From Alphaproteobacteria bacterium (GTDB lineage: Bacteria; Pseudomonadota; Alphaproteobacteria; CAAHEQ01; UBA3637), in the NCBI GenBank assembly GCA_015062385.1, contig SUUT01000006.1:7587-71586 (forward strand): a stretch of 64,000 nt of DNA, in the 5' to 3' direction. The notes beneath the pieces are model-generated. The model saw only the letters and a program-made list of their open reading frames with translations, did not search any database and had not been told where the DNA came from. A program made the translations under genes and the position numbers. This document shows, piece by piece, positions 1 to 14,348 of the stretch (position 1 is its first letter; each line of letters opens with the position of its first letter).

Positions 1-1
1 T

Positions 2-757
2 TTTGAAATTACGGGTGTATCCGATATTATGCGAGGCAGTTCTAATGAACGGGAAACCGCAACCGCTGTTGAGAAAAAGACAAATTTTGGTACATTACGT
101 AATCAAGACCGTCAGAATGATATGCAACGCTTTTTGGCAGATTTATATCGTATTAAAGCCGATATGATTTGTACCTGTTTTACCCCGGATACATTGGCCG
201 GTTTTGTAAACGTGAGCGAAGGATATACCGAAAATGTTATTCAAGAAGCCGTATCGCTTTTAAAACAAGATAAATTAAGGGGGATGTTGCTTCATGTTGA
301 ATCAACGGGTATTGTTAATACTCAGGAAGAAATTTTACGTACGACACAGGGCGTTCAGATATTACAAGATTTGTTAAAAGATGCAATGAGTTTTGTATCT
401 GCTCAACCGTTATTGTTACCGATTTATAAGCAAATGATGATGACGGTTATCGGGCAAATGCCACAAGCTCGATCCTTTGAAAGTGTGTTGGATCAAACGT
501 TTTCTCATATTAAGACTGATTTGGAAAAACCGGATATGCAAGGTACGGAACAAATGCAACGCCATACTCAATTAACAGATCATCAAATGCGTATGGAAAA
601 TCAGGCATTGGAACAACAATTGTTTGAGCGAAAATTATCCGTTCGCAAATTACAACAAGAGTATGAATTAACGAAAGAAAAAAATGCCATTGAACGGGAA
701 AAAAATCTGTTGAAACAACGAGAGTTGGATATGAAAGAACATGAAACACAACAGTAA
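2..757 (+). CDS. phage portal protein, C-terminal part (5' end outside window)
   Basis: The frame is open from base 2, so ORF 29..757 is only the tail of a longer gene. It has a long Q/E/K-rich helical C-terminus (QQLFERKLSVRKLQQEYELTKEKNAIEREKNLLKQRELD), like podovirus portal barrels. It lies in a tail/lysis/terminase block. The call rests on resemblance and context only. Confidence 0.45.
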   Translation, partial: FEITGVSDIMRGSSNERETATAVEKKTNFGTLRNQDRQNDMQRFLADLYRIKADMICTCFTPDTLAGFVNVSEGYTENVIQEAVSLLKQDKLRGMLLHVESTGIVNTQEEILRTTQGVQILQDLLKDAMSFVSAQPLLLPIYKQMMMTVIGQMPQARSFESVLDQTFSHIKTDLEKPDMQGTEQMQRHTQLTDHQMRMENQALEQQLFERKLSVRKLQQEYELTKEKNAIEREKNLLKQRELDMKEHETQQ

Positions 758-767
758 AGCGGATTTG

Positions 768-785
768 TAGTTTTGCTATATGTTT
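768..785 (+). promoter_or_regulatory. conserved phage intergenic motif, copy 1 of 6
   Basis: tagttttgctatatgttt lies directly after the portal stop. It shares the consensus TA(G)TTTT(A/G)CTATA(T/A)GTT with copies at 1075, 6180, 8589, 9130 and 9155, all on the + strand. Confidence 0.5.
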
Positions 786-859
786 TTAATTGATATTATT
801 ATTTTAAGTTTTAAGTCATTGTTTTCTTTCCCCACTGTCACATTGGATTTAACATCTAT

Positions 860-1048
860 CGTCAATTTTGGAAAAATGTGAGAGCATTTTATCTGAAATC
901 TTGTCACGATAATGACACATCGTTTGTACTACTTCTAACTTTTCTTAGTTTTTCGTCTCCCTGAATTTATTTCAGAGTCTCGTGACGATAATGGTACATT
1001 TTTTGTGCCTGTTCTTTATAAGAATCTGAAACAAGTTCAGATTGACGG
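860..1048. repeat. two tandem hairpin-rich REP/MITE-like units
   Basis: The units carry terminal CGTCA-plus-hairpin ends (ctgaatttatttcag, ctgaaacaagttcag) and a central GTCACGATAATGG...GTGCC block. The first unit is collinear with 27271-27368. The same family occurs at 8244-8572, 18571-18743 and 27271-27490. Confidence 0.75.
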
Positions 1049-1074
1049 TAAGGGTAAGGAAGAATGAAAATACA

Positions 1075-1092
1075 TACTTTTACTATATGTTT
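1075..1092 (+). promoter_or_regulatory. conserved phage intergenic motif, copy 2 of 6 (left arm degenerate)
   Basis: tacttttactatatgttt begins the 500-bp block that is duplicated at 6180-6680. Confidence 0.45.
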
Positions 1093-1145
1093 GGACCATT
1101 AAAAATATCAATATTTGTTTAATTTTAACAAGAAAGGAAATCAAA

Positions 1146-1741
1146 ATGACAGATTTATCAACTTACGATATCTTAAATGATATCAGAAACGGGAAGACGC
1201 CGGTCAAAAGACAAAATCCGCAACCAGGGAAAGTCCGTATTATTATATTCAGTCTAACGGAGATAAATCATATCTGCCAATAACGGAAAAGAATATTATC
1301 GGTGTAAATTCGGCAGATGAACCCAATCCGCTTTGGCGTAGTACGTTTCAAAAGACAACAAATAAGGGAAGTAGTGAATCAACACCGACAAGTGTTTCCG
1401 ATTTGGTTTTATCGGGAACAGGCGATACATCTCCAACGGATAGTTTGGGAATAAATTCCACACAAACGGATAATTTGGGCTTTAATTCTGTTTCATCAAC
1501 AAATAACACAATGTCTTTGTTTGATACGCCTCAAACAATGTCGTCAATATTAGGCACAAGTTCAACCGGTTCGGTTAATATTGAATCAAAATGGCCAAAG
1601 TTATATCAAGCGGCCCGAGAATTTAACCAACAAGAATTGTGTAATAATATTGCTCGGACAACAAAAGATCGTCCGGATATGATAGAAAGAAACGCTTGGG
1701 GTTTAAATGAATGTTTGCAGGATGATTTTATTCAAAAATAG
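1146..1741 (+). pseudogene. frameshifted orphan copy of the 6251..7354 gene with a different short C-terminus
   Basis: The same RBS and ATG context as 6251 is present (aagaaaggaaatcaaaatgacagat). Where 6331-6335 has GGGGG, this copy has AGGG (1226-1229), one base shorter. The ATG frame therefore stops at 1281-1283 and the homologous frame continues as track ORF 1403..1741. Homology ends near 1574, after which a different 55-aa tail follows. Confidence 0.7.
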
Positions 1742-1756
1742 CTTGCAAGGAGCGGA

Positions 1757-1788
1757 TATTGAGCATATAGTAAGCTATATGCTCAATA
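1757..1788 (+). promoter_or_regulatory. perfect 14-bp stem hairpin/palindrome (tattgagcatatag-taag-ctatatgctcaata)
   Basis: Read directly from the sequence. There is no following T-run. It contains the same ATATAG/CTATAT arms as the six-copy motif and lies between the orphan gene and the tandem array. Confidence 0.6.
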
Positions 1789-1810
1789 TAGTGTCTGGGA
1801 GGAGGGTTGC

Positions 1811-2275
1811 ATGTTCAAGAATAAATTTTTCCATATTTTAATTTGTTTGTGTATGAGTTTTACAGGATACGCCCAAGAACCGACAACTTTTGTAGATGAA
1901 CGGTTTAATCAGGTGTTAAAAGAATATTCATACAGGAGTGGAGATGCAAAGGTGACTCCTGATACTGTGATTAATCCTTACGGAAATGAATATGTTAATA
2001 TTATTAAAGGCGATTGTGAACTGTTAAAAAATGAAATAGGATACATTAAACTGCATTGTCGTACATGGAAAGTGTGTATGAAAACACCCAGTTGTGATGC
2101 TCCGGTAGAGCCTTTTTCGGATGACTTTATTTTTGTGATATTGGATGAAACAACGGAGAGGGAAGGTAAAACATATCGACTGATACACATGCGATATTCA
2201 GGAGGAGGTAGTTTTGAAGATTTTTTTTCCAGAACAACATTAATGATAGAGGAAAAGTCTAATGTTCAAGAATAA
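1811..2275 (+). CDS. secreted 154-aa protein, tandem copy 1 of 3
   Basis: It has a Sec-type signal (MFKNKFFHILICLCMSFTGYA|QE) and four conserved Cys. It is one of three head-to-tail copies with a 451-bp period, each ATG lying 14 nt inside the previous ORF. Confidence 0.7.
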   Translation: MFKNKFFHILICLCMSFTGYAQEPTTFVDERFNQVLKEYSYRSGDAKVTPDTVINPYGNEYVNIIKGDCELLKNEIGYIKLHCRTWKVCMKTPSCDAPVEPFSDDFIFVILDETTEREGKTYRLIHMRYSGGGSFEDFFSRTTLMIEEKSNVQE

Positions 2276-2726
2276 GTGTTTCCATATTTTAATTTGTTTG
2301 TGTATGAGTTTTACAGGATACGCCCAAGAGCCGATAACTTTTGTAGATGAACGGTTTAACCAGGTGTTAAAAGAATATTCATACAATAGTGGTGATGTAA
2401 AAGTGACTCCTGATACTGTGATTAGTGCTTATGGTTATGAATACGTTAATATTATTAAAGGCAATTGTGAATTGTTAGAAAATGAAATAGGATACATTAA
2501 ACTGCATTGTCGTACAAGGCAGAACTGTATGAAATCACCCAGTTGTGATGCTCCGATTAAGGCATTTCAAAATTATTTGAGTTTTGAGATATTGGATGAA
2601 ACAATAGAGTGGAAGGGTAAAACATACAGGCTTGTAGAAATGCGATATTCAGGACGAGATAAATTAGAAGATTCTTTTTCCGGAACAACATTAATGATAG
2701 AGGAAAAGACTGATGTTCAAGAATAA
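2262..2726 (+). CDS. secreted 154-aa protein, tandem copy 2 of 3
   Basis: Paralog of 1811..2275 with the same signal peptide and Cys spacing. Confidence 0.7.
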   Translation: MFKNKCFHILICLCMSFTGYAQEPITFVDERFNQVLKEYSYNSGDVKVTPDTVISAYGYEYVNIIKGNCELLENEIGYIKLHCRTRQNCMKSPSCDAPIKAFQNYLSFEILDETIEWKGKTYRLVEMRYSGRDKLEDSFSGTTLMIEEKTDVQE

Positions 2727-3177
2727 ATTTTTCCATATTTTAATTTGTTTATGTGTGAGTTTTACAGGATATGCTCAAGAGTCGATAACTTTTGTAGATG
2801 AACGGTTTAATCAGGTGTTAAAAGAATATTCATACAGGAGTGGAGATGCAAAGGTGACTCCTGATACTGTGATTAATCCTTATGGGAATGAATATGTTAA
2901 TATTATTAAGGGCAATTGCGAACTGTTAAAAAATGAAATAGGATACATTAAATTGCATTGTCGAACATGGCAAGACTGTATGAAAACGCCCAGTTGTGAT
3001 GCTCCGATTAAGGCATTTCAAAATTATTTGAGTTTTGAGATATTGGATGAAACAATAGAGTGGAAGGGTAAAACATACAGGCTTGTAGAAATGCGATATT
3101 CAGGACAGGATAAATTAGAAGATTCTTTTTCCGGAAAAACATTAATGATAGAGGAAAAGCCACATGGTCAAGAATAA
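2713..3177 (+). CDS. secreted 154-aa protein, tandem copy 3 of 3 (mosaic of copies 1 and 2)
   Basis: The N-terminal two thirds match copy 1 (YRSGDAKVTPDTVINPYGNEYV). The C-terminal third matches copy 2 (IKAFQNYLSFEILDETIEWKGKTYRLVEMRYSG). Confidence 0.7.
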   Translation: MFKNKFFHILICLCVSFTGYAQESITFVDERFNQVLKEYSYRSGDAKVTPDTVINPYGNEYVNIIKGNCELLKNEIGYIKLHCRTWQDCMKTPSCDAPIKAFQNYLSFEILDETIEWKGKTYRLVEMRYSGQDKLEDSFSGKTLMIEEKPHGQE

Positions 3178-3211
3178 ATGTTTCTATGATCTTGCCGGTT
3201 ATTTATAAACT

Positions 3212-3748
3212 TTAATATAATCCGAAAAATGTCGGGTAAAATAATGGTTTATCAATGTTGGAAATTAGCGGAATCAAAATGTTTTGATCGTATGCATATT
3301 CCCATATTCGCCAAACAACGGGAATTAAAATCAATGCCCAAGCCCAGTTTGGATTTTTGCGATAAATATAAATTGACAAGACAATCGCAGGCAAGCATAT
3401 CCCTAAAAACAAACCATTATACAAATAAAATTCTTTTAAACAATGCCAATCCCATCCGCAGGTATAACAACCCCATTTTACCCCGGCTGACAAGCCGTTT
3501 GTCCATACGTCAATAATAAAATAAAATGTTAATGCCAAAAACAACATATCAAAAACAGTTATGCCGATAAACAAAATCTGAAAAATCTTAGCTAAAACAG
3601 AATGTGACGGTTTATTCGGTGTTGTATCAATATCTTTTGATTTTAACCGTTTACGCACTGACGGTAATAACCGATATGATAATGGGACAAAAGCCGATTG
3701 ATAGGCCCGTTTAATATTTCTGGATGATTTGCGAGGCATTACATTCAT
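3212..3748 (-). CDS. integral membrane protein, opposite strand inside the phage block (moron-like)
   Basis: The 178-aa ORF has several hydrophobic helices (ILFIGITVFDMLFLALTFYFII, LFLGICLPAIVLSIYIY, WALILIPVVW). No family was recognised. Confidence 0.5.
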   Translation of the reverse strand: MNVMPRKSSRNIKRAYQSAFVPLSYRLLPSVRKRLKSKDIDTTPNKPSHSVLAKIFQILFIGITVFDMLFLALTFYFIIDVWTNGLSAGVKWGCYTCGWDWHCLKEFYLYNGLFLGICLPAIVLSIYIYRKNPNWAWALILIPVVWRIWEYAYDQNILIPLISNIDKPLFYPTFFGLY

Positions 3749-3913
3749 TCTCCCTGATAGATTTATTCAAAATTCTATCAGGTAATTTTCTGAATTGCAA
3801 CAGAAAAAAACAGGTGTCGCAAAATTTCTTTGTCGGCACTTTTTATTTTAATTTTTAACGGGCGTTATTGTGTTTAAAGCATACAACGCTCTTTTTTTAC
3901 GGAGAAAATAAAG

Positions 3914-4639
3914 ATGAGTACGATTTTAGAAATTTGTCAGGATGTTGCTTCACTGGTTGCAACACAAAAACCGGATACATTGTTTGATACGGATAATCAA
4001 CAATCCGCCATTTTTTTAAGCATTGCCAAAGATACGTTGGAAAGTTTACGGCGTTATGGTGATTGGCAGGAGTTAACCAAAGAGGGCTCTTTAACCGTTA
4101 CGCCTAATAAGTCAATCTATCGATTACGGGATGTTTGTCCTGATTTTTATTCATTGATGAACAATACGGTATATGTGCGGGATACGTCCGAACGGATTAT
4201 CGGGTCCATTACGCCCGAACAATGGATGAATGACCGTTTTTTTAATGTAGGTGTATCGGAAATGCGGTTTAAAATTCAAAATAATTGTTTGCGATTTTTA
4301 ACACCGCCCACACAACGTTGTCGGATTGTGTTTTATTATCGGTCAAGCGTTATTGCGGTTTCATCCGAAACGGATTGTCCATGTGATGAAATTGAAAAAA
4401 CAACCTTAACGGCAGATACGGATATTCCTGTATTTGATGAATATCTGGTTAAGTTGGGTATTATCTGGCGGTGGTATAAACGTAACGGATTGCCATATGA
4501 AGAAGAATTTAACGAATATACAAAGGAAGTGAAAAATCGTTTTAGCAATGGGTTATGTTTAAAAGATATTCCGTTAGCCCGTTGTTTTGATACGTCTTTA
4601 AACGGATTGGGAGGTGTTCATGTTATTACGAAAGCCTAA
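3914..4639 (+). CDS. phage structural protein (head-tail adaptor/tail accessory candidate)
   Basis: The 241-aa ORF has an RBS (ggagaaaataaagatg) and overlaps the next gene by 20 nt. The call is by position only, upstream of a large beta-rich tail-like protein. Confidence 0.4.
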   Translation: MSTILEICQDVASLVATQKPDTLFDTDNQQSAIFLSIAKDTLESLRRYGDWQELTKEGSLTVTPNKSIYRLRDVCPDFYSLMNNTVYVRDTSERIIGSITPEQWMNDRFFNVGVSEMRFKIQNNCLRFLTPPTQRCRIVFYYRSSVIAVSSETDCPCDEIEKTTLTADTDIPVFDEYLVKLGIIWRWYKRNGLPYEEEFNEYTKEVKNRFSNGLCLKDIPLARCFDTSLNGLGGVHVITKA

Positions 4640-6182
4640 TCGAACAAACAAGTCGGTCAACTATGTGTTGCCGTGTCCCAGCGGGGGATTAAATGCCCGT
4701 GATAGTCGGGATAAAATGCAGTTAACCGATGCCATTGTTATGGATAATTATATGCCGTTAAATACACAGGTTTCTTTGCGAAAAGGATATCGTAAATATG
4801 TACCCTTGTCATGTGCAGTAAAAACATTAGTGACATATAATGCACCGGATGGAAAAGACCGTTTATTTGCTTTTGGTGGTGGTACGGTATGGGATATTAC
4901 CAGTGTTCTGGATGTGCGGGATTTGGAAAAAACATATACCGGTAATACATGGCAAACATGTCAGTTTAAAAATCGGTTGTTTGCCGTCAATGGTGTTGAT
5001 GTTCCGCAAACGTATGTGCCGGATGAAACGGGTGTTTCGGTCGGGTCTTGGGAAGATGTGTCTTTTTCGGGTGACAATTTAAATTTAACCAAGCTTGTGC
5101 AGGTTGGTGTTTCAAAACAACGCCTGTGGTTTGTTGAAAAAGGTAGTTTAACCGTTTGGTACACAAGTGGTGTTGCCGAAGTTCAGGGAACATTAATTCC
5201 GTTTGATTTTAGTACCGTTGCTACAAAAGGGGGGCATCTGGTTGCCGTTGGTTGTTGGACACAGGACGGTGGTCAGGGATTGGATGATTTAACTGTTTTT
5301 ATCACATCGGAAGGGGAAGTTCTTGTTTATAGTGGAACAAATCCAAGCAGTGCAGATGGTTGGATTTTACGGGGTGTGTATCAAATCAGCCGACCGCTTG
5401 GGTATGATTGTCTATTGCCATATCAAGGCGATTTGATTGTTTTGTGCGAAGCCGGATATTTACCGTTATCCAAAGCATTATCCTTGCAAAACGCTACCGA
5501 TACCCGTATTGCATTCAGCGATAAAATCAGGGAGCTGGTGCAAGATCGTATTCGGTCCAATCGGGCAAAGGACGGTTGGCAGGGGATTATATACAGTCGG
5601 GGCGGATATGCCTTGTTTAATGTGCCGGTTGCACAGCAATTTGAACAACATGTTGTGAATACTACAACTGGAGCATGGTGTCGGTTTACGGGTATTCGTT
5701 CTTATTGTTGGACGGTTTTTCAAACACGGCTTTATTTTGGAACAGATAATGGAGTTATGCTGTTTGATGAGGGGTATAGTGATGACGGGCAACCGATTGT
5801 CGGAGTTGTGGAACAGGCATTCAGTGATTTGGGTAGTCCGTACTTAAAAAAAGCACAGTTGATGAATCCCCGAACAAAATCATCATTGCCTTATGCTTTA
5901 ACGGTTTACTGGAATACGGATTATCAATCGGTTGAACGTAAAAATGCTTTATCGGTCGGTGATCAGAAAACGGTTTTGTGGAATCAGGTTAAATGGTCCT
6001 CATTAAAAGATAAAAGCGGGACACTTTGGGCAACGTTGAAAGGTCGTATTCGGTCGCAGTGGATTGGTTGCAATGCAACCGGTTTTAAATTGAGTTTGGT
6101 ATTTAAAACCAAAACAAAAGGAACCCTGATTGATTGGTATGAAACAGGTGTTCGCTATGAACAGGGAACCGGAATTTTATAG
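4620..6182 (+). CDS. phage tail hub/head-completion-like protein with beta-propeller-like repeats
   Basis: The start is taken at ATG 4620, behind gggagg. It has repeated beta-strand blocks (LFAFGGGTVWDIT, LFAVNGVDVP, LWFVEKGSLTVWYT, VFITSEGEVLVYSG, LYFGTDNGVMLF). Its size, position and C-terminal GFKL..L.F pattern recall P22 gp10-type proteins. Not verified. Confidence 0.4.
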   Translation: MLLRKPNRTNKSVNYVLPCPSGGLNARDSRDKMQLTDAIVMDNYMPLNTQVSLRKGYRKYVPLSCAVKTLVTYNAPDGKDRLFAFGGGTVWDITSVLDVRDLEKTYTGNTWQTCQFKNRLFAVNGVDVPQTYVPDETGVSVGSWEDVSFSGDNLNLTKLVQVGVSKQRLWFVEKGSLTVWYTSGVAEVQGTLIPFDFSTVATKGGHLVAVGCWTQDGGQGLDDLTVFITSEGEVLVYSGTNPSSADGWILRGVYQISRPLGYDCLLPYQGDLIVLCEAGYLPLSKALSLQNATDTRIAFSDKIRELVQDRIRSNRAKDGWQGIIYSRGGYALFNVPVAQQFEQHVVNTTTGAWCRFTGIRSYCWTVFQTRLYFGTDNGVMLFDEGYSDDGQPIVGVVEQAFSDLGSPYLKKAQLMNPRTKSSLPYALTVYWNTDYQSVERKNALSVGDQKTVLWNQVKWSSLKDKSGTLWATLKGRIRSQWIGCNATGFKLSLVFKTKTKGTLIDWYETGVRYEQGTGIL

Positions 6183-6197
6183 TTTTGCTATATGTTT
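6180..6197 (+). promoter_or_regulatory. conserved phage intergenic motif, copy 3 of 6
   Basis: tagttttgctatatgttt overlaps the stop of 4620..6182 and lies 54 nt upstream of ATG 6251. Confidence 0.5.
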
Positions 6198-6250
6198 GGA
6201 CCATTAAAAATATCAATATTTGTTTAATTTTAACAAGAAAGGAAATCAAA

Positions 6251-7354
6251 ATGACAGATTTATCAACTTACGATATCTTAAATGATATCAGAAACGGGAA
6301 GACCCCAGTCAAAAGACAAAATCCGCAACCGGGGGAAAGCCCATATTATTATATCCAGTCTAACGGAGATAAATCATATCTGCCAATAACGGAAAAGAAT
6401 ATTATTAATGTTAATTCGGCAGAGGAGCCGAATCCGCTATGGAGTAGTGCGTTTCAAAAGACAACAAATACGGGAAGTAATGAGGCAACACAAACAAGTG
6501 TTGCCGATTCGGTTTTATCGGGAACATTTGATACATTTCAAACGGATGGTTTGGGGACAAATTCCACGCAAACGGATAATTGGGGCTTCAATTCTGTTTC
6601 ATCAACAAATAACACAATGTCTTTGTTTGATACGCCTCAAACAATATCATCAATATTAGGTACAAGTTCAAGTGGTTCGGCAAATCCGTTTGGCACATCA
6701 TCATTTCAGCCGGATAATTCATCATTTTCTAACACAATCAATAATTATTTTACACCGAATATGTCGACTGAACAATCTTATCTTGATACCACTGCTCAAA
6801 CACAGAATACAATAGATATTAATACAAATTTAAAAACAAAGGAAAATTATTCAAACGCATATCCAATTATGCGTCCTGATAAAAGAAAATTAGTTCATTT
6901 TCCCCTTACTGAATATGTGAAGTATACAACAGGAAAGTTCGATTCCCCACATCCAAATAATCAAATTTTTGGAGCATTAAGAGATTTCGGAGAAAGTTAC
7001 ATTAATATGCAAAATGCAAATTTAAGAAGTAATCCGGAGACAAGAGAATCAGGAAAAACAATGGATAATTATGTACATTGTATAGCTAATTATAATGCTG
7101 CAAAACGAGGATCGTTAGGGGGGGGAACTGGATTGCTGTTAGGTGTATCTCGTGAGATGATGGATTTAATTAAAAATACAAAAAAAGGAGATATCTATTC
7201 GGCTTTAAAAGATGCTGTAAATGATCTTTCTGTTAATTCTGTTGGAATATTAAAAGGGATGACTAATTGGCATCAGTCAGCCGAAGAGGCTTGCCAAGAT
7301 TACAAACCGGAAAGTTATAATCCGATAGATGTTTATAAATGGTATCGTAAATAA
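6251..7354 (+). CDS. tail-associated protein: conserved N-module, S/T/N-rich linker, serum-amyloid-A-like C-terminal domain
   Basis: The start is taken at ATG 6251 (RBS aaggaaatcaaaatg). The C-terminus FGALRDFGESYINMQNAN...DNYVHCIANYNAAKRGSLGGG...VSRE parallels the vertebrate SAA motifs FDGARDMWRAYSDMREAN...DKYFHARGNYDAAKRGPGG...DARE. Confidence 0.6.
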   Translation: MTDLSTYDILNDIRNGKTPVKRQNPQPGESPYYYIQSNGDKSYLPITEKNIINVNSAEEPNPLWSSAFQKTTNTGSNEATQTSVADSVLSGTFDTFQTDGLGTNSTQTDNWGFNSVSSTNNTMSLFDTPQTISSILGTSSSGSANPFGTSSFQPDNSSFSNTINNYFTPNMSTEQSYLDTTAQTQNTIDINTNLKTKENYSNAYPIMRPDKRKLVHFPLTEYVKYTTGKFDSPHPNNQIFGALRDFGESYINMQNANLRSNPETRESGKTMDNYVHCIANYNAAKRGSLGGGTGLLLGVSREMMDLIKNTKKGDIYSALKDAVNDLSVNSVGILKGMTNWHQSAEEACQDYKPESYNPIDVYKWYRK

Positions 7355-7438
7355 TTTGTTTATGATGTAAAATTTTCTTGTTTATAGATGCATTTTGTTA
7401 TATGAATCTCGTGTAATAAGTGTATTAGGAGTGCCAAG

Positions 7439-8173
7439 ATGTTTTTATTTTGTGTTGTTTGTTTTCTTGTTTTTTTAGGATGGCAGTATCATGTTTATCA
7501 TTCTTTTTTAAGAATGACTAAATCGTGTTGCTTAATTAGTTACAAGGTTATCTTTGCACTTTTTACAATCGTATTATTTTTATTTTGTATCGGATGTTTG
7601 TTGTTATCTGTTCCGATTTGGATAATTTTTTTCGGTGGCTTATGTTTATATGTCTTGATGTTTTGCCTACTGGATATTGTATTATCACGGCAAGTGATAA
7701 AATACCGAAGTTTATGGTTTTTAAAGCCGATATGGATAAGTTTTTTTATCGTTAATTTATTATTTTTAATAATTGGTTTAGGGGAATATATTTCGGTTAT
7801 CGTATGGATTTGGGTACAATTAATGAGTGTTTTTTGGATTTGTTTATCTAAACAACTGTTTTCGTATTCTTTAAATTATACATCTATAAATGGTGTTTTT
7901 AGACGTTTATTTTTTTGTATTTCTTTGTTCTTTTCGGTAGGGATGGGGCTTATATGGATTTTGATATTTTTAAGTGTTTGCTTTTTGCCGATATTTAATT
8001 GGTTACCGGAGAATTCATCAGACACATGTTTGGATTTTGGATATTGTCAATCAGGTTTGGTAATTAAGTATTGCGATAATGATTGTTCGGATATAATAGT
8101 TAGCAAAGATTGGTGCCTATCTCAAAATTTTCATTGGGATGAAAATGGGCAGGCATGTATTTTACATCAATAA
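7439..8173 (+). CDS. polytopic membrane protein with Cys-rich C-terminal tail
   Basis: The 244-aa ORF has at least 6 hydrophobic helices. It ends in CLDFGYCQSGLVIKYCDNDCSDIIVSKDWCLSQNFHWDENGQAC. It lies directly downstream of the SAA-like gene. Confidence 0.55.
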   Translation: MFLFCVVCFLVFLGWQYHVYHSFLRMTKSCCLISYKVIFALFTIVLFLFCIGCLLLSVPIWIIFFGGLCLYVLMFCLLDIVLSRQVIKYRSLWFLKPIWISFFIVNLLFLIIGLGEYISVIVWIWVQLMSVFWICLSKQLFSYSLNYTSINGVFRRLFFCISLFFSVGMGLIWILIFLSVCFLPIFNWLPENSSDTCLDFGYCQSGLVIKYCDNDCSDIIVSKDWCLSQNFHWDENGQACILHQ

Positions 8174-8243
8174 TGTTAAAGATGAAGCTTGGTTATTGCT
8201 TTTTGTTTTGATTGTTGTTTTTCTTATTATATATCCCGCATTG

Positions 8244-8572
8244 CTCTGAATTTATTTCAAGGATTTGGTTACAATAATGGCAGAATGTTTGTGCCAATTC
8301 TACCCGAGATTCCGGACTAAATCCAGAATGACGGTAAGTGTAAATATTTGTTGTTATTTCAATCATTTTTAATGTTTTTCGTCACTCCGGACTTGGTCCG
8401 GAGTCTTGTCACAACAATGGCACACCATTCGTGCCACACCGTCCCGAGAATCTGAAACAAGTTCAGATGACGATGAGTGTAAAGGGGGGGCATCATTTTG
8501 TCCGAAATCTCGTCACGAAATGGCAGCGTGTTTGTGCCGGTTCTATACGAGACTCCGGATGACGATAGCGAT
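8244..8572. repeat. three tandem REP/MITE-like units
   Basis: The units lie at about 8244-8335, 8378-8472 and 8490-8572. Each contains GT(C/T)AC(G/A)A(T/C)AATGGCA-N8-GTGCC and hairpin ends (ccggacttggtccgg, ctgaaacaagttcag, ccggactaaatccag) next to GACG/CGTC. Confidence 0.8.
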
Positions 8573-8588
8573 GACAAACAATGATATA

Positions 8589-8606
8589 TAGTTTTACTAT
8601 GTGTTT
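8589..8606 (+). promoter_or_regulatory. conserved phage intergenic motif, copy 4 of 6
   Basis: tagttttactatgtgttt lies 63 nt upstream of ATG 8669, whose RBS context (aagaaaggaaataaaaatg) matches that of 6251. Confidence 0.5.
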
Positions 8607-8668
8607 GAGGATTTTCAATTCGTCGTTATGTATAAAATTGAGTTGTTTTTTTAAGAAAGGAAATAAAA

Positions 8669-9127
8669 ATGTCAATAAAAACAGATATATTATCTTCCAG
8701 TCAATCGGGAATGAGTGATGTGATATGGGATAAAGATTTATTAACCGTTCCTTGGGCTTGTGCCGGATTGGGGATAAAGCCTTCTGAAATTCGGATATTG
8801 ACGGCTTTAGCATTCTTTTGGCAGGGGCGTTTGGTCGGGTCGTTATTGTTTCATGATGGCTATGCCGGTCGGGATGTTTGGTGGACAATTTATACAGTAG
8901 ATAAACATTGGTGTCAACGGCGTTTTTTACGGACAATTTTTCGGGTTGCGTTTGAAGATTTTCATTTTCGCAGAATAGGAATTATTGTTCGGGCAGACAA
9001 TAAAAAATCATTGTCGTTGGTTCGTCGGCTTGGCTTTGTAGAGGAGGGACGATTTCGTCAAATTGAAGATGACGGAACGGATTGCCTTGTTTTTTCAATG
9101 CTCAAAAATGAAAATCAATTTGTATAA
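8669..9127 (+). CDS. GNAT-family N-acetyltransferase
   Basis: The C-terminal half (FHFRRIGIIVRADNKKSLSLVRRLGFVEEGRFRQ) fits the GNAT acetyl-CoA-binding beta4-alpha3 and beta5 pattern. Confidence 0.65.
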   Translation: MSIKTDILSSSQSGMSDVIWDKDLLTVPWACAGLGIKPSEIRILTALAFFWQGRLVGSLLFHDGYAGRDVWWTIYTVDKHWCQRRFLRTIFRVAFEDFHFRRIGIIVRADNKKSLSLVRRLGFVEEGRFRQIEDDGTDCLVFSMLKNENQFV

Positions 9128-9129
9128 TA

Positions 9130-9147
9130 TAGTTTTACTATAAGTTC
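9130..9147 (+). promoter_or_regulatory. conserved phage intergenic motif, copy 5 of 6
   Basis: atatagttttactataagttc, tandem with copy 6, which lies 25 nt downstream. Confidence 0.5.
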
Positions 9148-9154
9148 AGATATA

Positions 9155-9172
9155 TAGTTTTACTATAAGTTT
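9155..9172 (+). promoter_or_regulatory. conserved phage intergenic motif, copy 6 of 6
   Basis: atatatagttttactataagttt. Confidence 0.5.
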
Positions 9173-9357
9173 TGCTTTTGTTCGTTGTCCGAGACTTGTT
9201 TTATCGTTTTTGGGGGCGTAAAAAGTATTTTAAAGTAATAAAAAAATGTCAAAACAGATACGAATAATGTATCTGAATGATTTGTTCAATCAATTTTTAT
9301 TCAAATTTCAAGTGTGTCAAAAATAAATTTAAATTTTTTAAAAAAGGAGAAAAAAAT

Positions 9358-10056
9358 ATGAGTAAAGCAATTGGTTCGGTCTTAGGTACAAATGTTAAAG
9401 TTGATACCTCTGCCGGAGAGAATTATTTATCTTATTTAAAGTCTTATGATACGTCAACAGCCGATAAAACAAACAACTTAATGGCTCAGGAAGCGTATCA
9501 GTTGGCTTCTGATTTATCTAATCAAGGGCTGGTTTCTGCCGTTTCGGCTTCTGATGAAGCCCGTCAGCGGATGGAAAATGCAACATATCAATCATATATG
9601 GATCGCTTAATCCCGCAACATCAACAACAAATGGCTGATTTGGAAACCCGTTTGGCTAATCAGGGATTGTCGGTTGGTTCACAGGCTTATCAAACAGCCG
9701 TTAATAATTTAATGCAAGAACAAAATGATTCCATTAATCAAGCGACTTACAAGAGCGTTATTGCAGGTCAGGATGCTTATACGCAATCCCTAAATGATGC
9801 CATTGCAGCCGGTAATTTTACAAATACGGCTTATCAAACGGCAATTAATCAGATGAATGCACTCTTGCAAAATAGCCCAACGGGGTATCAAAATCAAGCA
9901 AATATCTATGCTGTTCAACAGGGTGTTGCACAACAACAGGCATCGGCAAAACAGCAAAGCTTAAACAATATGTTTGGCGTGTTGGGTGGGGCTTTAAATG
10001 CAGCGACAACCGCTTATGGTTATTCTCAAATGGGTAAAACTGCTTCAAACGGTTAA
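9358..10056 (+). CDS. Q/A/N-rich helical virion protein (ejection/scaffold-like)
   Basis: The start is taken at ATG 9358, behind aaggagaaaaaaat. The 232-aa product is low-complexity and coiled-coil-like. The call is by position only. Confidence 0.4.
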   Translation: MSKAIGSVLGTNVKVDTSAGENYLSYLKSYDTSTADKTNNLMAQEAYQLASDLSNQGLVSAVSASDEARQRMENATYQSYMDRLIPQHQQQMADLETRLANQGLSVGSQAYQTAVNNLMQEQNDSINQATYKSVIAGQDAYTQSLNDAIAAGNFTNTAYQTAINQMNALLQNSPTGYQNQANIYAVQQGVAQQQASAKQQSLNNMFGVLGGALNAATTAYGYSQMGKTASNG

Positions 10057-10203
10057 TCGGTGTTAACCTCAAATAATGCAGTATATCAGAGTGTTTTTTT
10101 TCTGTAATTTAAGTGTATCTGCATTTGATATTATTTATTTTTAATCAATAAATTAAATAGAATTATTAATGCTTAACATTAATTTAAAAAAAGGAAGGTT
10201 AAA

Positions 10204-11454
10204 ATGACAAATTTTAATTATGTTAATGATATTTTAAACGTTAATCGTCATGCTCCGAAAGCATTGGATTTAACGGGGATTGCCTCATTGCCGAATGCGG
10301 CGATAAATGGTTTACGAAATGGTATGGAGTTGAAAAATACAGTTTTGAAACAGCAGTCAACAGCAGATAGTTTATCTCGTCAACAGGCAGAAAACGATGT
10401 TCGGCGACAATATTTGCAAAATCCGGCTGCAAATACCATTTATGAGCCGTATTTTAACATCCGTCCATCTGGTCTTTCTCAAATGAATGGATATACAGTT
10501 AACGGCACAACTCAATCAGGTACCGATCGTTCTCGGATGATGCCGTCTAATGGATCTTCAATCAATAGTCGGGTAAATACATCCCGTACGCAAATGAGTG
10601 CAAAAGATAAAGAGTGGAATCGATTGACTGAGGCTGGTTTCGCTCCGCAAGAAATTATGTCTGTCTTATATCCGAAAGGTGTTCAAAGTAATGCTGTACA
10701 GCAAGAAAATCAAAAATCTTCAACAATGTTTGATAGATATGATTATTTTAACAAAAACAATCAAATAAATGACATTTCTAATCCAGTGAATGAAGATAAT
10801 TTTTCATCTTCAAACTTGATGAATGTTGGTCAAAATGTTTTTGTTTCTCCTCAACGTACACCGGTGGATTTTTCGGCTGTTGGAACAGATATGACAGTTC
10901 CTTCCGGCATGAATTTTGATACATCGGATGTGGCTAATCCGACAGATTTGAATACGTCATATCGACAAAATGCGTTTTCTTTTCCGCAATCGGATATCGT
11001 AAATGAAAAAACAATACCTATGCAATCGTTTATGTCCACATCTGAAACGGGGCCGATGAGTATGGATACAGTAAGTGATACATTAAATGCTTCCAATCCG
11101 GTAAGTAGTGAAATAAATACCTCAACGATGAGTGGAACAGTTGATAATGCATTTGTGTCAACAGGAACATCATCTGCTCCTACGGTTGAAAATATGCTAT
11201 CGACTTCCCCTGTCGGTTTAGGTGGAATGCATACAACAAATAATTATTCCTCCGAAACACAAAAATCAAGCGGACAAACATCATCGGTTGAAACTCAAAG
11301 CATGCATATGATGCCGTTTAAAACACAAGATGAATTGTATGCTTTTCAAGAAGCTGCTTTGGGAGCTGATTCTTCTTTAACCCCTGATCAACGCAATGCG
11401 CGTATTTTACAGGGCGTGCCAGTGTCTGATACATTTTGGAACAGCTTTGTTTAA
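10204..11454 (+). CDS. S/T/N-rich low-complexity virion protein (ejection/internal protein candidate)
   Basis: The 416-aa ORF has an RBS (aaggaaggttaaaatg) and extended S/T/N/M-rich segments. No family was recognised. Confidence 0.4.
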   Translation: MTNFNYVNDILNVNRHAPKALDLTGIASLPNAAINGLRNGMELKNTVLKQQSTADSLSRQQAENDVRRQYLQNPAANTIYEPYFNIRPSGLSQMNGYTVNGTTQSGTDRSRMMPSNGSSINSRVNTSRTQMSAKDKEWNRLTEAGFAPQEIMSVLYPKGVQSNAVQQENQKSSTMFDRYDYFNKNNQINDISNPVNEDNFSSSNLMNVGQNVFVSPQRTPVDFSAVGTDMTVPSGMNFDTSDVANPTDLNTSYRQNAFSFPQSDIVNEKTIPMQSFMSTSETGPMSMDTVSDTLNASNPVSSEINTSTMSGTVDNAFVSTGTSSAPTVENMLSTSPVGLGGMHTTNNYSSETQKSSGQTSSVETQSMHMMPFKTQDELYAFQEAALGADSSLTPDQRNARILQGVPVSDTFWNSFV

Positions 11455-11473
11455 CCGAATAAAAACCGTTAAC

Positions 11474-11503
11474 TTCCCCCGAAAAGATGTTTTTTCGGGG
11501 GAA
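11474..11503 (+). terminator. strong intergenic hairpin (ttcccccgaaaa-gatgtt-ttttcgggggaa)
   Basis: A 12-bp stem is read directly from the sequence. There is no clear T-run, so it may be a processing or attenuation hairpin rather than a true terminator. Confidence 0.4.
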
Positions 11504-11522
11504 AACGTTTAGGGAGCGGAAA

Positions 11523-11813
11523 ATGGACAGGAGAAGAAAAATGCCAAAATCTATGGATAGATTTTATGAAGTTCTGCATAAAACGGTGACCGGTTTTTTA
11601 ATTCCGCTTGTTTTTTATTTGTTGGGTCAAATCAATGAAGTGAAAAAAGAGGTATCAATTTTTGAGTTGCGGGTTGCCAAAGATTCAGCACAGTATGCCC
11701 TGCGAGATGATATCGTGCGGGTAGAAACAAAAATTGATGAGTTAAAAACACTTATCATACAGGAGGTTAAACGAAATGAGCATTATTACACCGGCTTTAA
11801 AAAAGCGGATTAA
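11523..11813 (+). CDS. holin or i-spanin-like membrane protein
   Basis: The start is taken at ATG 11523, behind gggagcggaaa. It has one TM helix (VTGFLIPLVFYLLGQI) followed by a coiled coil. It lies immediately upstream of, and overlapping, the endolysin gene. Confidence 0.5.
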   Translation: MDRRRKMPKSMDRFYEVLHKTVTGFLIPLVFYLLGQINEVKKEVSIFELRVAKDSAQYALRDDIVRVETKIDELKTLIIQEVKRNEHYYTGFKKAD

Positions 11814-12201
11814 ACGACATGAAGGGATGCGTCTTAAACCGTATCATTGTCCGGCTGGACGACTGACAATTGGCATTGGGCGTAATTTAACTGATGTTGG
11901 TATAACAGAAACGGAAGCTGAGTATTTGTTGGAAAACGATTTGCAATCGGCCGAAAAAAATTGTTCGGATGCGTTTATTTGGTATGAAAAACTGGATAAT
12001 ATTCGAAAAGGCGTGATTGTGGAAATGGTTTTTAATTTAGGATTTGCGGGATTTTTGGGATTCCGCAAATTGATAAAAGCGTTAACGATAGGGGATTATC
12101 TGACCGCTTCGAAAGAAATGTTATCCAGTCGTTGGGCAGCACAGGTGGGGCATCGGGCAGAGGTATTATCGTTAATTATGAAAACAGGAAAGGAGTATTA
12201 A
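11776..12201 (+). CDS. T4-type (GH24) phage lysozyme/endolysin
   Basis: HEGMRLKPYHCPAGRLTIGIGRNL aligns with T4 lysozyme [24 protein letters not shown], including the catalytic Glu and Thr. EMVFNLGFAGFLGF...SRWAAQVGHRAEVL aligns with NMVFQMGETGVAGF...SRWYNQTPNRAKRV. Confidence 0.9.
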   Translation: MSIITPALKKRIKRHEGMRLKPYHCPAGRLTIGIGRNLTDVGITETEAEYLLENDLQSAEKNCSDAFIWYEKLDNIRKGVIVEMVFNLGFAGFLGFRKLIKALTIGDYLTASKEMLSSRWAAQVGHRAEVLSLIMKTGKEY

Positions 12202-12202
12202 C

Positions 12203-12343
12203 ATGAAAGACAGACTATTATTATTTTTAAAAACAAACAAAAAGAAAATGATAACATTTATCGTAACGGGTATTTTAGCGGCGTTAGGTGTAGTAGCCGA
12301 TACAACGGCGTTAACTGAGTTATTGTCCGTTATGATACCATAA
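12203..12343 (+). CDS. 46-aa single-TM protein (holin/antiholin/spanin-like), below the ORF-track cutoff
   Basis: The ATG lies 2 nt after the lysozyme stop, with aggag 8 nt upstream. The product is MKDRLLLFLKTNKKKMITFIVTGILAALGVVADTTALTELLSVMIP, with a basic N-terminus and one TM helix. Confidence 0.5.
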   Translation: MKDRLLLFLKTNKKKMITFIVTGILAALGVVADTTALTELLSVMIP

Positions 12344-12354
12344 AAGGAGTGAAA

Positions 12355-13011
12355 ATGATGATTGTACAGCAAACGAAACCGGCGTTTTATCCGATAACGA
12401 CGGAGGATGTGTCGGCAACGGATATGCCGGAATGTCATCAATTAAATAATCGGATACATTCAGTTGAAAATAAGCTCAAAAAGCAAAATCATTCATCTGA
12501 AATTGTTTCGTCTGTTCAGCGAAAGCCTCAAAAAACTTCCGTTGAACGAAATTTGCAATCAGTTCAGGAAAAAAAGGTTTCTGTTTTTTCCGAACAGGAT
12601 GTATTGCCATCTCAGCGGAAAGCAGAAATGCTTTCCGCTGAACAAATTCAGTGTACAAAGCAAAAACAAACAGATGTTTGTTCTGTCACACAGGATGAAC
12701 CGACCCTTTTTTCATATACGATTGCAGACAGTTTTTCAAAATTATGTGATATTCAGGAAACTGCTTTATCCATGGCACCCAAACCCGATTTTACGGCAGC
12801 GTTAAAGTCGGAGGAATTAAAAGGAAAACTGTTTGGATTATATACGGATAAAAAGGATAAAGAAAAAGGATTTGAAAATTTACCGCAGTTGTTGGTTGAA
12901 TTTATTGAGGTTGATAAAACGGAATATCGAACATCATTCGGCAATGCAACAGCAGATAATAATCATTCGACAGAGGAAAATAGTTTGCCATTTACGGTAG
13001 AATATGTTTAA
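12355..13011 (+). CDS. hypothetical phage protein upstream of the large terminase (small-terminase position)
   Basis: The ATG lies behind aaggag. The 218-aa product has no recognisable motifs. Only its position suggests a small-terminase (TerS) role. Confidence 0.3.
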   Translation: MMIVQQTKPAFYPITTEDVSATDMPECHQLNNRIHSVENKLKKQNHSSEIVSSVQRKPQKTSVERNLQSVQEKKVSVFSEQDVLPSQRKAEMLSAEQIQCTKQKQTDVCSVTQDEPTLFSYTIADSFSKLCDIQETALSMAPKPDFTAALKSEELKGKLFGLYTDKKDKEKGFENLPQLLVEFIEVDKTEYRTSFGNATADNNHSTEENSLPFTVEYV

Positions 13012-13022
13012 GGAGTTTTTTT

Positions 13023-14348
13023 ATGCCAAAAATCAAGGTGTGCATACCGGCGGTTTTTCGTCCGTTGTTAAGTCAGAAAAAACGCATTAAATTTTATTAC
13101 GGCGGACGGGCAGGGGGAAAATCTTATGCTTTTGCCGATAGTTTACTGATTTTAGGGCGGATGAAAAAATTATTTATTGTCTGTTTAAGGGAGATTCAGG
13201 GATCCATTCGGGATTCTGTTCATAAATTGTTATCTGATCGTATTTCGTATTATCAGTTAAGTGATTATAAAGTGACTGATACAAAAATTGAAAATAAAGT
13301 GACCGGAACAGTTTTTGTATTTAAAGGTTTGCGAGATCAGGATCCGCAAAAAATAAAATCATTGGAGGGAGCAGATATTGCTTGGATTGAAGAAGCACAA
13401 ACCATTACCAAAAAATCATGGGATATATTAGAACCGACCATTCGTAAGCCGAATTCCGAAATTTGGATATCCATGAATCGAGAACAGGAAAATGATCCTT
13501 TATGGGTAGCGGTGGCAGTACAACCGGATGAAAATACGCTGGTTCAAAAGGTTAATTATACAGATAACCCCTTTTGTCCGCAGGAAATGAAAGATTTAGC
13601 CGATAAGTGTCGAGAGAAAAATCCGACGGATTATGCACACATTTGGTTAGGTGAACCCATTTTAAACGGAAATAATAAGCTGATAGATTTGCAGTCCGTT
13701 AAAAAGGCTCAATCGGGTCATCTGATTGAAACATCCGGTTCGTTGATTATCGGATTGGACATTGCCCGTTTTGGGGATGATGAAACTGTTTTTTGTTTCA
13801 GGCGGGGGCGTATATGTGAACGGTTTGAAGCCTATCGGAAAAAAGATACGGTAGAAGTGGCAAATATTGTCACGCATTACATTCAGCAATATCAACCATA
13901 TCGCATTTTTTTGGATATTGGCGGACAGGGTGCCGGTGTGTATGATATTTTAACGGACAGAGGATTTCGGGAAGTTGTTCGGGGTATATCGTTTGGGGAA
14001 AAAGCCATTCAATCAGACAGATACGTGAATAAACGGGCAGAAATGTGGGACGGTATTCGTCAATGGTTGACGGGAACGAGTCCTGTTTATTTGCCGAATG
14101 ATACAGCTATTACGGATGATTTATGTGATGTGAATAAAAAATACGATCGGTTGGGACGATTACAGTTGGAAGAAAAAGAAAGTTTAAAACGCCGGTTAGG
14201 ACGTTCTCCGGATTGGGGAGATGCATTAGCGTTAACGTTTGCAGAGCCGATATTTGAACAAGATACGCCGAATTTATATACGAATGATACGGATAAAATC
14301 AGCATTGAAACCTTGTTTTGCGATAAAAGGGAAGGTGCTGGTTGGTAA
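13023..14348 (+). CDS. terL: phage terminase large subunit
   Basis: It has a Walker A-like YYGGRAGGKSYAFA and an ATPase-coupling LREIQGS / IAWIEEAQ (Walker B-like). The C-terminal nuclease-like half has GLDIARFGDDETVF and FLDIGGQGAGVYD. Confidence 0.8.
   Translation: MPKIKVCIPAVFRPLLSQKKRIKFYYGGRAGGKSYAFADSLLILGRMKKLFIVCLREIQGSIRDSVHKLLSDRISYYQLSDYKVTDTKIENKVTGTVFVFKGLRDQDPQKIKSLEGADIAWIEEAQTITKKSWDILEPTIRKPNSEIWISMNREQENDPLWVAVAVQPDENTLVQKVNYTDNPFCPQEMKDLADKCREKNPTDYAHIWLGEPILNGNNKLIDLQSVKKAQSGHLIETSGSLIIGLDIARFGDDETVFCFRRGRICERFEAYRKKDTVEVANIVTHYIQQYQPYRIFLDIGGQGAGVYDILTDRGFREVVRGISFGEKAIQSDRYVNKRAEMWDGIRQWLTGTSPVYLPNDTAITDDLCDVNKKYDRLGRLQLEEKESLKRRLGRSPDWGDALALTFAEPIFEQDTPNLYTNDTDKISIETLFCDKREGAGW

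Follow-up and report, generated by a model that had tools for sequence, protein, structure and literature searches.

The 64,000-nt stretch analysed here (positions 7,587 to 71,586 of the forward strand of contig SUUT01000006.1, assembly GCA_015062385.1; hereafter the window) comes from an uncultured, low-GC alphaproteobacterium and opens within a small podovirus-like prophage, whose virion module holds a short, frameshifted gene copy (the orphan) between the portal and head-to-tail adaptor genes and an intact relative of it (paralog 2) some 5.1 kb farther on. We read the orphan, with a probability of roughly 75%, as the decayed paralog 1 of an effector pair residing in that module. Each paralog joins a conserved N-terminal domain of ~65 amino acids (aa; the N-module) through a disordered S/T/N-rich linker to a C-terminal domain predicted to act on the cell envelope, and is followed by its own gene or genes for putatively envelope-located proteins. 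The orphan itself is ordinary as a pseudogene, a young remnant of a lysozyme effector gene carried by the phage, with no function except possibly that of a recombination substrate. Its parts are listed here (RBS, ribosome-binding site; ORF, open reading frame; P numbers denote proteins and L numbers loci in our comparison set).

1074–1145, plus strand: shared upstream block of paralog 1, with motif TTTTACTATATGTTT at 1078–1092, an AT-rich spacer and an AAGGAAA RBS, within direct repeat D3
1146–1741, plus strand: paralog 1 pseudogene with a 1-nt frameshift, in which N-module codons 1–140 run in frame into the final 58 codons of the ancestral 402-aa gene, as aligned with P0002 and P0003
1146–1283, plus strand: residual 45-aa ORF, from the original ATG to a frameshift-induced TAA stop at 1281–1283
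1226–1229, plus strand: frameshift site, AGGG where intact copies read the 5-nt (G/T)GGGG
1563–1579, plus strand: deletion junction CAACCGGTTCGGTTAAT, where two imperfect direct repeats (14 of 17 nt, 8 nt perfect) have fused
1575–1741, plus strand: 55-aa tail, the predicted last helices of a GH24 lysozyme-like fold (P0002 residues 348–402), non-functional alone

Pairwise alignment with MAFFT placed 1074–1579 and 6179–6683 in one continuous duplicate of ~505 nt, 91.3% identical and with a single 1-nt gap; repeat finding returned it as direct-repeat families D3 (1074–1232 vs. 6179–6337, 96% identity, spacing 5105 nt) and D2 (1227–1526 vs. 6333–6632, 89%, spacing 5106 nt). Chance cannot account for a 500-bp repeat at ~91% identity. 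The duplicate contains the upstream motif TTTTRCTATATGTTT, the AAGGAAA RBS, the ATG (1146 in the orphan, 6251 in paralog 2) and 143 codons leading to GTSS(T/S)GS, and 3' of that point (codon 143) the copies show no relationship. The orphan reads CAACC-AGGGAAAG (AGGG, 1226–1229) where the intact copy reads CAACCGGGGGAAAG (G5, 6331–6335), that is, one base has been lost; in the –1 frame after the frameshift there is no further stop until 1741 (170 further codons), and the tail after GS measures exactly 55 aa (VNIESK...DFIQK). An initial reading of the window from its letters (the sequence-only reading) had described a ~500-bp, ~90% identical duplicate with motif, RBS, ATG and ~140 codons, and a base lost against G5 that ends the ATG frame at 1281–1283; the alignment (91.3%, 143 codons) and the translations agree with this description, all of its coordinates proved correct, and the 55-aa tail length was confirmed. 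No other frame-breaking lesion was found in the window copy, and among 14 aligned N-module copies (a set that does not include the locus L011 described below) only the window orphan is gapped at the G-run. The 42 substitutions separating the two window copies spread over every base pair without favouring A, and we rejected a diversity-generating retroelement target on that basis.

A homology search with paralog 2 as query returned six clusters only. The proteins P0002 (402 aa) and P0003 (404 aa) begin with the same N-module and end with a near-identical copy of the orphan tail, ~200 residues lying between the two; the search that the sequence-only reading had suggested, for related prophages in which the 1575–1741 tail is joined in frame to the N-module, thus succeeded, and what it found are full-length intact genes. 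The intact 402/404-aa gene occupies the orphan's portal-to-adaptor slot in six related loci (L001–L006), which represent the same prophage as the window, with flanks 97–99% identical. In these loci the order is intact paralog 1, a 154-aa gene in one, three or four copies, and a membrane-protein gene in reverse orientation, and the SAA-type gene (the counterpart of paralog 2) is also present, downstream of the adaptor and a ~520-aa protein. Two paralogs per prophage are therefore the normal state, and the window orphan is paralog 1 in its native place.

Compared with L001, the window lacks exactly 612 nt (204 codons, in frame), corresponding to P0002 residues 141–344. Both edges of the gap in L001 align to the junction at 1563–1579, as CAAgtGGTTCGGTaAAT and CAAccGGTTCGGTtAAT, each encoding (S/T)GSVN and flanking the 612-nt segment at L001 coordinates 9120–9136 and 9732–9748; the deletion would have arisen by slippage or illegitimate recombination at these short imperfect direct repeats. 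The short form of the orphan is derived by deletion, not ancestral. After the junction only P0002 residues 345–402 are left, and the catalytic residues E227, D236 and T242 are gone. The orphan tail cannot be a functional alternative C-terminus, and fusing it to another N-module could not yield a working protein. Here the sequence-only reading has to be replaced: what it took for an alternative C-terminus is the last 55 residues of a GH24 lysozyme-like domain from which 204 codons were deleted, and the supposed displaced or silent cassette sits in the native paralog 1 slot, which is intact in six related loci. It had also thought of a receptor-binding tip cassette, and we found no similarity to receptor-binding tip proteins.

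The domain lost from paralog 1 is predicted, from alignments and a structure model taken together, to be a GH24 T4-lysozyme-like muramidase. P0002 matched PF00959 Phage_lysozyme at residues 226–350 (E = 2.9e–4, 21.6 bits, with the cutoff at 22.3 bits). Among outside sequences, its C-terminal region is closest to the stand-alone proteins P0007–P0009 (224–233 aa). Two of them, P0008 and P0009, contain the Pesticin muramidase domain PF16754, and the genes for P0007 and P0008 lie just downstream of nozzle genes in other podophage contigs. In the alignment with these proteins E227, D236 and T242 are invariant at spacings of 9 and 6, giving P0002 a Glu-9-Asp-6-Thr motif with the same spacing as the T4 lysozyme catalytic residues E11/D20/T26; the orphan tail aligns with their C-terminal helices. 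With hhalign, the E/D/T motif of P0002 fell on the prophage's own endolysin. The AlphaFold model of P0002 was confident only at residues 210–345 (predicted local distance difference test, pLDDT, 70–87), and in a Foldseek search of that model against the PDB all top 50 matches contained T4 lysozyme (probability 1.0, template modelling score 0.5–0.6 on the target), including gp5–Spackle complexes 6xc0 and 7cn7 and a pesticin–T4L hybrid; PDB sequence searches with P0002 or its profile gave marginal matches only.

Both lesions of the orphan are real and inherited. The identical 45-aa frameshifted product is called on five other public contigs, forming its own cluster (P0018), and L011, independently assembled from another sample, shares the 1-nt loss, the deletion junction and the tail with the window copy; the two match at every position through the frameshift (243 nt, 100%), and L011 carries an additional 27-nt indel in the pseudogene. 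The ratio of non-synonymous to synonymous substitution rates (dN/dS) of the window copy against intact copies was 0.28–0.32 overall and 0.11–0.13 in the structured core, while pairs of intact copies gave 0.20–0.35. The remaining N-module retains a signature of purifying selection, with two discrete lesions and no sign of random decay; the expectation of a single discrete lesion in place of random decay was borne out by these ratios, which resemble those of intact copies, with the in-frame deletion now to be added.

The N-module copies are mosaic, and the shared block, judged by the pattern of its variants, does appear to behave as a recombination substrate. The orphan N-module is 87–91% identical to every sampled copy, and its flanks are 98–99% identical to L001. 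Between the window and L011 orphans, identity runs in successive patches of 100%, 90%, 81%, 57% (at the 27-nt indel) and 97%, followed by an identical tail, and parts of the L011 patch resemble paralog 2. The four-gamete test was failed by 320 of the 1081 informative-site pairs from eight copies, and L006 shows the states around the G-run exchanged between the two paralogs with respect to L001. This mosaic exchange bears out the suggestion that the shared 500 bp serve as a recombination handle; the 500-bp homology would still be exchanging sequence with other N-module copies.

Paralog 2 and the downstream partner genes of the two paralogs are these.

6179–7354, plus strand: intact paralog 2, with upstream block 6179–6250 and a 367-aa gene at 6251–7354 encoding N-module, S/T-rich linker and predicted Prok-SAA (Lipocone) domain
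7439–8173, plus strand: 244-aa polytopic membrane protein with 4–5 transmembrane (TM)-like segments and 6 Cys after the last; candidate Imm-SAA-type partner of paralog 2
1811–3177, plus strand: three tandem overlapping 154-aa genes (1811–2275, 2262–2726, 2713–3177), repeat family D1 with a 451-bp period

As to the SAA-like domain that the sequence-only reading had noticed in the intact copy, PF00277 SAA matched paralog 2 at E = 1.9e–5 (25.4 bits, below the 30.8-bit cutoff), and residues 239–354 align end to end with a Prok-SAA sequence from the data of PMC12419801 (BLASTP, E = 5e–6). Of the motifs D-x-Y-x-H...N-x-x-A-x-x-G and sNxxG(R), the paralog 2 tip has MDNYVHCIANYNAAKRG and VNSVG and lacks the Arg of sNxxGR. 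The topology of the 244-aa protein fits the 'TM+[TM+TM+]Imm-SAA' immunity partner, with its four-cysteine domain, catalogued by Burroughs et al. (eLife 2025, PMC12419801); our accessions were not found in those supplementary files of that paper that were compared. The C-terminus of the 244-aa protein is 28–30% identical to a protein encoded 3' of a 40%-identical SAA-type gene in the distant locus L017, and the window and L017, at 40% tip identity, both pair an SAA tip with a TM/Cys-rich protein. A protein identical to paralog 2 (P0001) occurs on 15–18 public contigs, annotated as hypothetical in metagenome-assembled genomes (MAGs) of uncultured Alphaproteobacteria bacterium; two of these contigs, L007 and L008, begin inside the tandem 154-aa array and carry no information on the orphan slot. 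The sequence-only reading's label 'tail-associated' stands for position only, the intact gene lying 3' of an SU10-type adaptor and a 522-aa tail-module protein.

The 154-aa proteins have a signal peptide (...TGYA|QE, secreted) and four invariant cysteines, and their genes always lie 3' of paralog 1 in the relatives; we regard them as candidate immunity or exclusion partners of the paralog 1 lysozyme. An exact look-up of the first 154-aa protein returned nothing, and tblastn of the 154-aa protein and of the 178-aa membrane protein encoded next to the array against all other loci of the comparison set found no homologs beside other lysozyme-type members. Copy number of the 154-aa gene varies among otherwise 97–99% identical prophages, with one copy in L006 and L011, three in the window, L001 and L003–L005, and four in L002. 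The copies overlap at stop/start codons, copy 1 differs from copies 2 and 3 mainly in the C-terminal half, and several public contigs break inside the array.

A HMMER search with the first 70 residues collected 38 representative clusters sharing the N-module, with lengths from 45 to 627 aa. The module, M..LST.EIL.N..NG.T.IKRQNPK.GE..YYY....//..V.SPD.PNP over ~65 aa, stands at the N-terminus in nearly all 38, with a low-complexity linker of widely differing length behind it; the module has no match in Pfam, PHROGs, NCBIfam or PADLOC. At the C-terminus we found Tlde1_dom (5 members), YkuD (2) and SAA (4, best E = 8e–10), as well as T6SS_VgrG3-like_C, Glyco_hydro_108 with PG_binding_3, Phage_lysozyme and, in one case, Phage_Mu_F. 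One N-terminal domain is thus combined with unrelated C-terminal domains across the 38 clusters, as expected of polymorphic toxin systems in the sense of Zhang et al. (2012) and Jamet et al. (2017). Most of the genes have small envelope-protein genes of immunity-like appearance as neighbours; as candidate partners, the SAA tip has a TM/Cys-rich protein in the window and L017, and the lysozyme tip always has 154-aa genes after it. The layout claimed from the window, in which the 5' module is conserved, the 3' modules vary and the small genes downstream differ, holds at the level of the family, which apparently comprises uncatalogued phage-embedded polymorphic effectors with tips that are, by their domain matches, mostly cell-wall-directed.

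All named family members come from uncultured Alphaproteobacteria MAGs. The L019 member lies beside a similar phage-like element, and those of L017/L018, L020 and L021 lie in chromosomal islands. The island at L017 8013–12214 (and L018), from another alphaproteobacterial MAG, carries three consecutive N-module genes. In gene A, codon 63 is a TAA, the SAA tip shares 40% identity with that of the window, and the protein encoded next has 4 TM segments and 6 Cys. Gene B is intact and bears another SAA tip; its downstream neighbour encodes a protein of 3 TM segments and 4 Cys. Gene C has lost its start (ATG to AAG), has a third tip and precedes the gene for another 3-TM protein. Polymorphic toxin loci with orphan modules classically look like this, defective copies standing beside an intact gene; the window orphan differs in that its tip is deleted.

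Two further members of the family deserve mention. P0033 (L020 9001–9573) joins the N-module to Phage_Mu_F PF04233 (E = 2.7e–13) and the beginning of a lysozyme-like motif, a physical link of the N-module family to MuF toxins in a host chromosomal context with no phage genes nearby. A third paralog type, P0005-like (417–426 aa, Gly/Ala-rich C-terminus, no Pfam match), follows capsid-like genes in other phage-like regions (L009 2685–3938, L012 10001–11269), and a 196-aa member of its cluster, P0083 (E7014_00040), is annotated in what appears to be the source MAG of the window.

The nearest known theme is that of the MuF polymorphic toxins, which are encoded within the packaging module of temperate phages and end in variable C-terminal toxins (Jamet et al. 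2017, PMC5576092). As in those systems, the genes are phage-encoded within a morphogenesis module beside the portal (paralog 1 lies directly 3' of the portal gene in the window, L001–L006 and L011), with a conserved N-domain, a variable tip and an adjacent immunity-like gene; Prok-SAA tips occur in both, and P0033 combines the N-module with Mu_F. Unlike them, the window N-module is not MuF (paralog 1, paralog 2, P0002 and P0003 had no PF04233 match even at E ≤ 1), the host is an alphaproteobacterial MAG rather than one of the Firmicutes, and there are two paralogs per prophage, one of them after adaptor/tail genes, with tips across the family mostly peptidoglycan-directed. The N-module family thus resembles the MuF-type theme, on a different, uncatalogued N-domain.

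Burroughs et al. (PMC12419801) list Prok-SAA among the toxin tips of polymorphic toxin systems, with a predicted activity of cleaving lipid head groups or lipid-carrier-linked peptidoglycan intermediates; T6SS and MuF are named as delivery modules, and MuF-Prok-SAA fusions with Imm-SAA are catalogued. Paralog 2 resembles these Lipocone toxins in its full-domain alignment, its PF00277 match and its TM and Cys-stabilised downstream protein, and differs in its delivery module and in scoring below the Pfam cutoff. With virion-associated peptidoglycan hydrolases and ejection proteins (T7 gp16 among podoviruses, and T4 gp5 with Spackle) the prophage shares a predicted GH24-type domain placed in the virion module and separate from the endolysin. 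Spackle is a periplasmic inhibitor of the T4 gp5 tail lysozyme, and the 154-aa product would likewise be a small secreted protein that could neutralise lysozyme in the periplasm, although its inhibitor role is that of a candidate only; no sequence similarity of T7 gp16 or T4 gp5 to the N-module was found, and the tips of the N-module family, unlike theirs, are interchangeable.

A mechanism consistent with this arrangement can be put forward. The N-module would load the proteins into or onto the phage particle, as suggested by their virion-module position and by the one Mu_F fusion; once loaded, they would be ejected into the periplasm of the target cell, where the tips would act. The downstream envelope proteins would protect the lysogen, by immunity or superinfection exclusion, and in the window the lysozyme gene would have been lost with its partners kept, protection being still useful without the weapon. 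Immunity or exclusion by the downstream proteins would explain the presence of three intact 154-aa genes beside a dead lysozyme gene. More tentatively, and with doubts of our own, we suggest that the N-module is an undescribed cargo-loading domain with which a podovirus-like, possibly gene transfer agent (GTA)-like, particle of gut/rumen Alphaproteobacteria carries interchangeable periplasm-acting toxins (GH24, GH108, Tlde1, VgrG3-C, Prok-SAA) to neighbours, a Gram-negative, non-MuF counterpart of the MuF systems in which defective copies (the window orphan, L017 genes A and C) serve as recombination reservoirs and immunity genes are kept against kin particles.

The orphan is in itself routine; its value is as a pointer to a compact phage-like element of gut/rumen Alphaproteobacteria with two effector genes within its virion module, and to an N-domain absent from the four family databases named above that is fused to many of the envelope-targeting tips used by T6SS and MuF toxins. 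Should the N-module serve to load proteins into virions, the concept of polymorphic toxins delivered by phages would reach past MuF and the Firmicutes, new toxin/immunity pairs could readily be sought through the module, and it would be clear why tandem immunity-like genes outlast the toxin. The locus also illustrates, as a clean natural case, a domain deleted in frame through microhomology, with what seems to be continued gene conversion of the remnant afterwards.

Several observations weigh against our reading of the orphan and its relatives. The structure prediction for the N-module is of low confidence (pLDDT 20–46), and each line of evidence for the lysozyme is modest (Pfam just below cutoff, Foldseek E ~3e–3, a low-confidence C-terminal lobe). 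The 154-aa family is lineage-restricted, its position is the sole ground for an immunity role, and its AlphaFold model was unusable (mean pLDDT 35). Some family members lie in chromosomal islands without phage genes nearby, and delivery could use another route. The orphan N-module is more diverged than its flanks, with no donor allele found among the sampled copies. Finally, all sequences are metagenome assemblies, the contigs often break at these repeats, and some of the mosaicism could be assembly chimera.

The main rival, which we hold to be possible and rather unlikely, sees the paralogs as ordinary virion-associated lysins, ejection or internal virion proteins that bring the phage through the cell wall as T7 gp16 does, not as toxins, with the downstream genes unrelated morons or superinfection-exclusion genes and the loss of paralog 1 a matter of redundancy with paralog 2 or of general decay in a defective prophage. 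Both genes do lie inside the portal–adaptor–tail module, stand-alone lysozyme-domain homologs are found just downstream of podophage nozzle genes, most tips of the family degrade or remodel peptidoglycan as entry requires, and the lack of integrase and replication genes from the examined stretches would fit a prophage in decay. Nonetheless the island members occur as successive pairs of gene and membrane-protein gene, with nonsense and start-less copies among them, which is a toxin/immunity layout; Tlde1 and VgrG3-C are, by their Pfam names, T6SS-effector domains, and Prok-SAA has been described as a polymorphic-toxin tip with Imm-SAA partners (PMC12419801). General decay is not apparent either: all other element genes are intact and 97–99% identical to their relatives. 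The entry-enzyme and toxin readings are not mutually exclusive, and the former is compatible with part of our model.

That the orphan is instead a stored alternative C-terminus, to be swapped in through the shared 500 bp in the manner of CDI (contact-dependent inhibition, cdiA-CT/cdiI) or Rhs orphans or of receptor-binding-protein cassettes, we consider very improbable. It would suit 91% homology over 500 bp in direct orientation 5.1 kb apart, the mosaic exchange between N-module copies, and the start-less and nonsense copies beside an intact gene in L017. CDI/Rhs orphans likewise are defective copies homologous to the conserved part that lie near an intact gene and immunity genes, as in the L017 layout, and such homology can mediate recombination. 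Classical CDI/Rhs orphans, however, have lost the 5' end and retain a full alternative toxin tip, whereas the window orphan keeps its 5' end, RBS and ATG and has lost the tip, and it lies upstream, at its native locus. The stored tail would be a 55-residue fragment of a lysozyme fold without catalytic residues, so that any chimera would be inactive; the copy has its own promoter-like motif, RBS and ATG in the native paralog 1 locus; recombination between the direct repeats would delete the adaptor and tail genes in between; and no contig was found with the tail directly joined to a paralog-2-type N-module.

Still less credit is due to a sequencing or assembly error as the source of the frameshift, the deletion or both in a repeat-rich metagenome-assembled genome. 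In its favour, the sequence probably derives from a MAG, a number of related contigs stop at the N-module or in the 154-aa array, and the frameshift falls in a G-run; but the 45-aa ORF is identical on the five other contigs, L011 from a different sample shares the 1-nt loss and the junction while differing elsewhere, and a repeat of 14 of 17 nt (8 nt perfect) is too short to collapse a k-mer assembly. The weakest proposal, that the G-run is a phase-variation or programmed-frameshift switch for a 198-aa protein, can draw on a homopolymer lesion next to GGGAAAG and on a –1 frame open for 170 further codons, yet we scarcely credit it, the orphan having 3 G and intact copies 4–5 G (well below usefully slipping lengths), GGGAAAG being out of X_XXY_YYZ phase relative to the ATG frame, L011 adding a 27-nt indel, and the product still having no catalytic domain.

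The remaining features of the neighbourhood are listed in window order.

29–757, plus strand: phage portal gene, C-terminal part, cut by the window start (phrog_12082, E = 5e–21; 99.5% identical to L001)
763–954, no strand: intergenic segment of 192 nt, against only 22 nt in L001, with a third motif copy TTTTGCTATATGTTT at 771–785
3212–3748, minus strand: 178-aa membrane protein with 2 TM-like segments, a conserved island member (175 aa in relatives)
3914–4639, plus strand: head-to-tail adaptor (PF24175 SU10_adaptor, E = 1.8e–7; phrog_6013 tail protein, E = 8e–33)
4614–6182, plus strand: 522-aa tail-module protein in nozzle-gene position (phrog_5107, E = 4e–83, labelled 'amidase')

The full 625-aa portal homolog in L001 matched the portal family at E = 4e–108. 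The 178-aa protein had no family matches in Pfam, PHROGs, NCBIfam or PADLOC. For the 522-aa protein there was no Pfam match (no amidase), and the 'amidase' (lysis) label of phrog_5107 may mislead; a nozzle identity likewise found no support, BLASTP against a PF25675 nozzle protein giving no significant similarity (E = 0.098). Downstream of the 244-aa gene follow a GNAT gene, further structural proteins, an endolysin (11776–12201) and the large terminase (13023–14348), with host genes such as UvrC from ~20 kb of the window. Just after the terminase, a 374-aa Fic_N/Fic protein (14693–15817, minus strand) matched the SoFic anti-phage defence family (PADLOC PDLC03963, E = 1e–113; phrog_5978, E = 8e–90).

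The phage-like element appears to measure only ~18–19 kb (window 1–14400 plus L001 4900–8500); at one end it borders on tRNA-synthetase and LOG-like genes of the host, at the other on the SoFic gene. Its recognisable genes encode a GroES-like co-chaperonin, portal, adaptor, endolysin, terminase, a virion structural protein and the 522-aa tail-module protein. The stretches of it that were examined showed no recognisable gene for an integrase, a repressor or replication, and the element could be a defective prophage or a GTA-like particle cluster. Relatives were scarce outside the loci already named: megablast of window 1–9000 and tblastn of the repaired orphan found nothing in an annotated phage collection, IMG/VR viral contigs and JGI metagenome contigs had none by protein pattern or exact 35-mer, and the GTDB genomes yielded one MAG only, with two short contigs. 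A promoter/terminator scan was uninformative (32 promoter-like sites vs. 31.9 expected), and Rfam identified no RNA family in 1–15000.

The intergenic segment 763–954 has no counterpart in relatives keeping an intact paralog 1, and L011 matches the window only up to 866. The spacer 763–1073 contains two similar ~17-nt boxes, GTCACGATAATGACACA (~903) and GTGACGATAATGGTACA (~981); L011 has a different spacer deletion (window 867–989 missing). The spacer is as variable as the pseudogene. The motif TTTTRCTATATGTTT has 9 matches in the window at ≤2 mismatches, against 1.5 expected, and six of its copies are intergenic on the plus strand (771–785, 1078–1092, 6183–6197, 8592–8606, 9133–9147 and 9158–9172), standing just upstream of the orphan, paralog 2, the GNAT gene and a structural gene. 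The motif is a general feature of the element and a candidate element-specific promoter or regulatory site.

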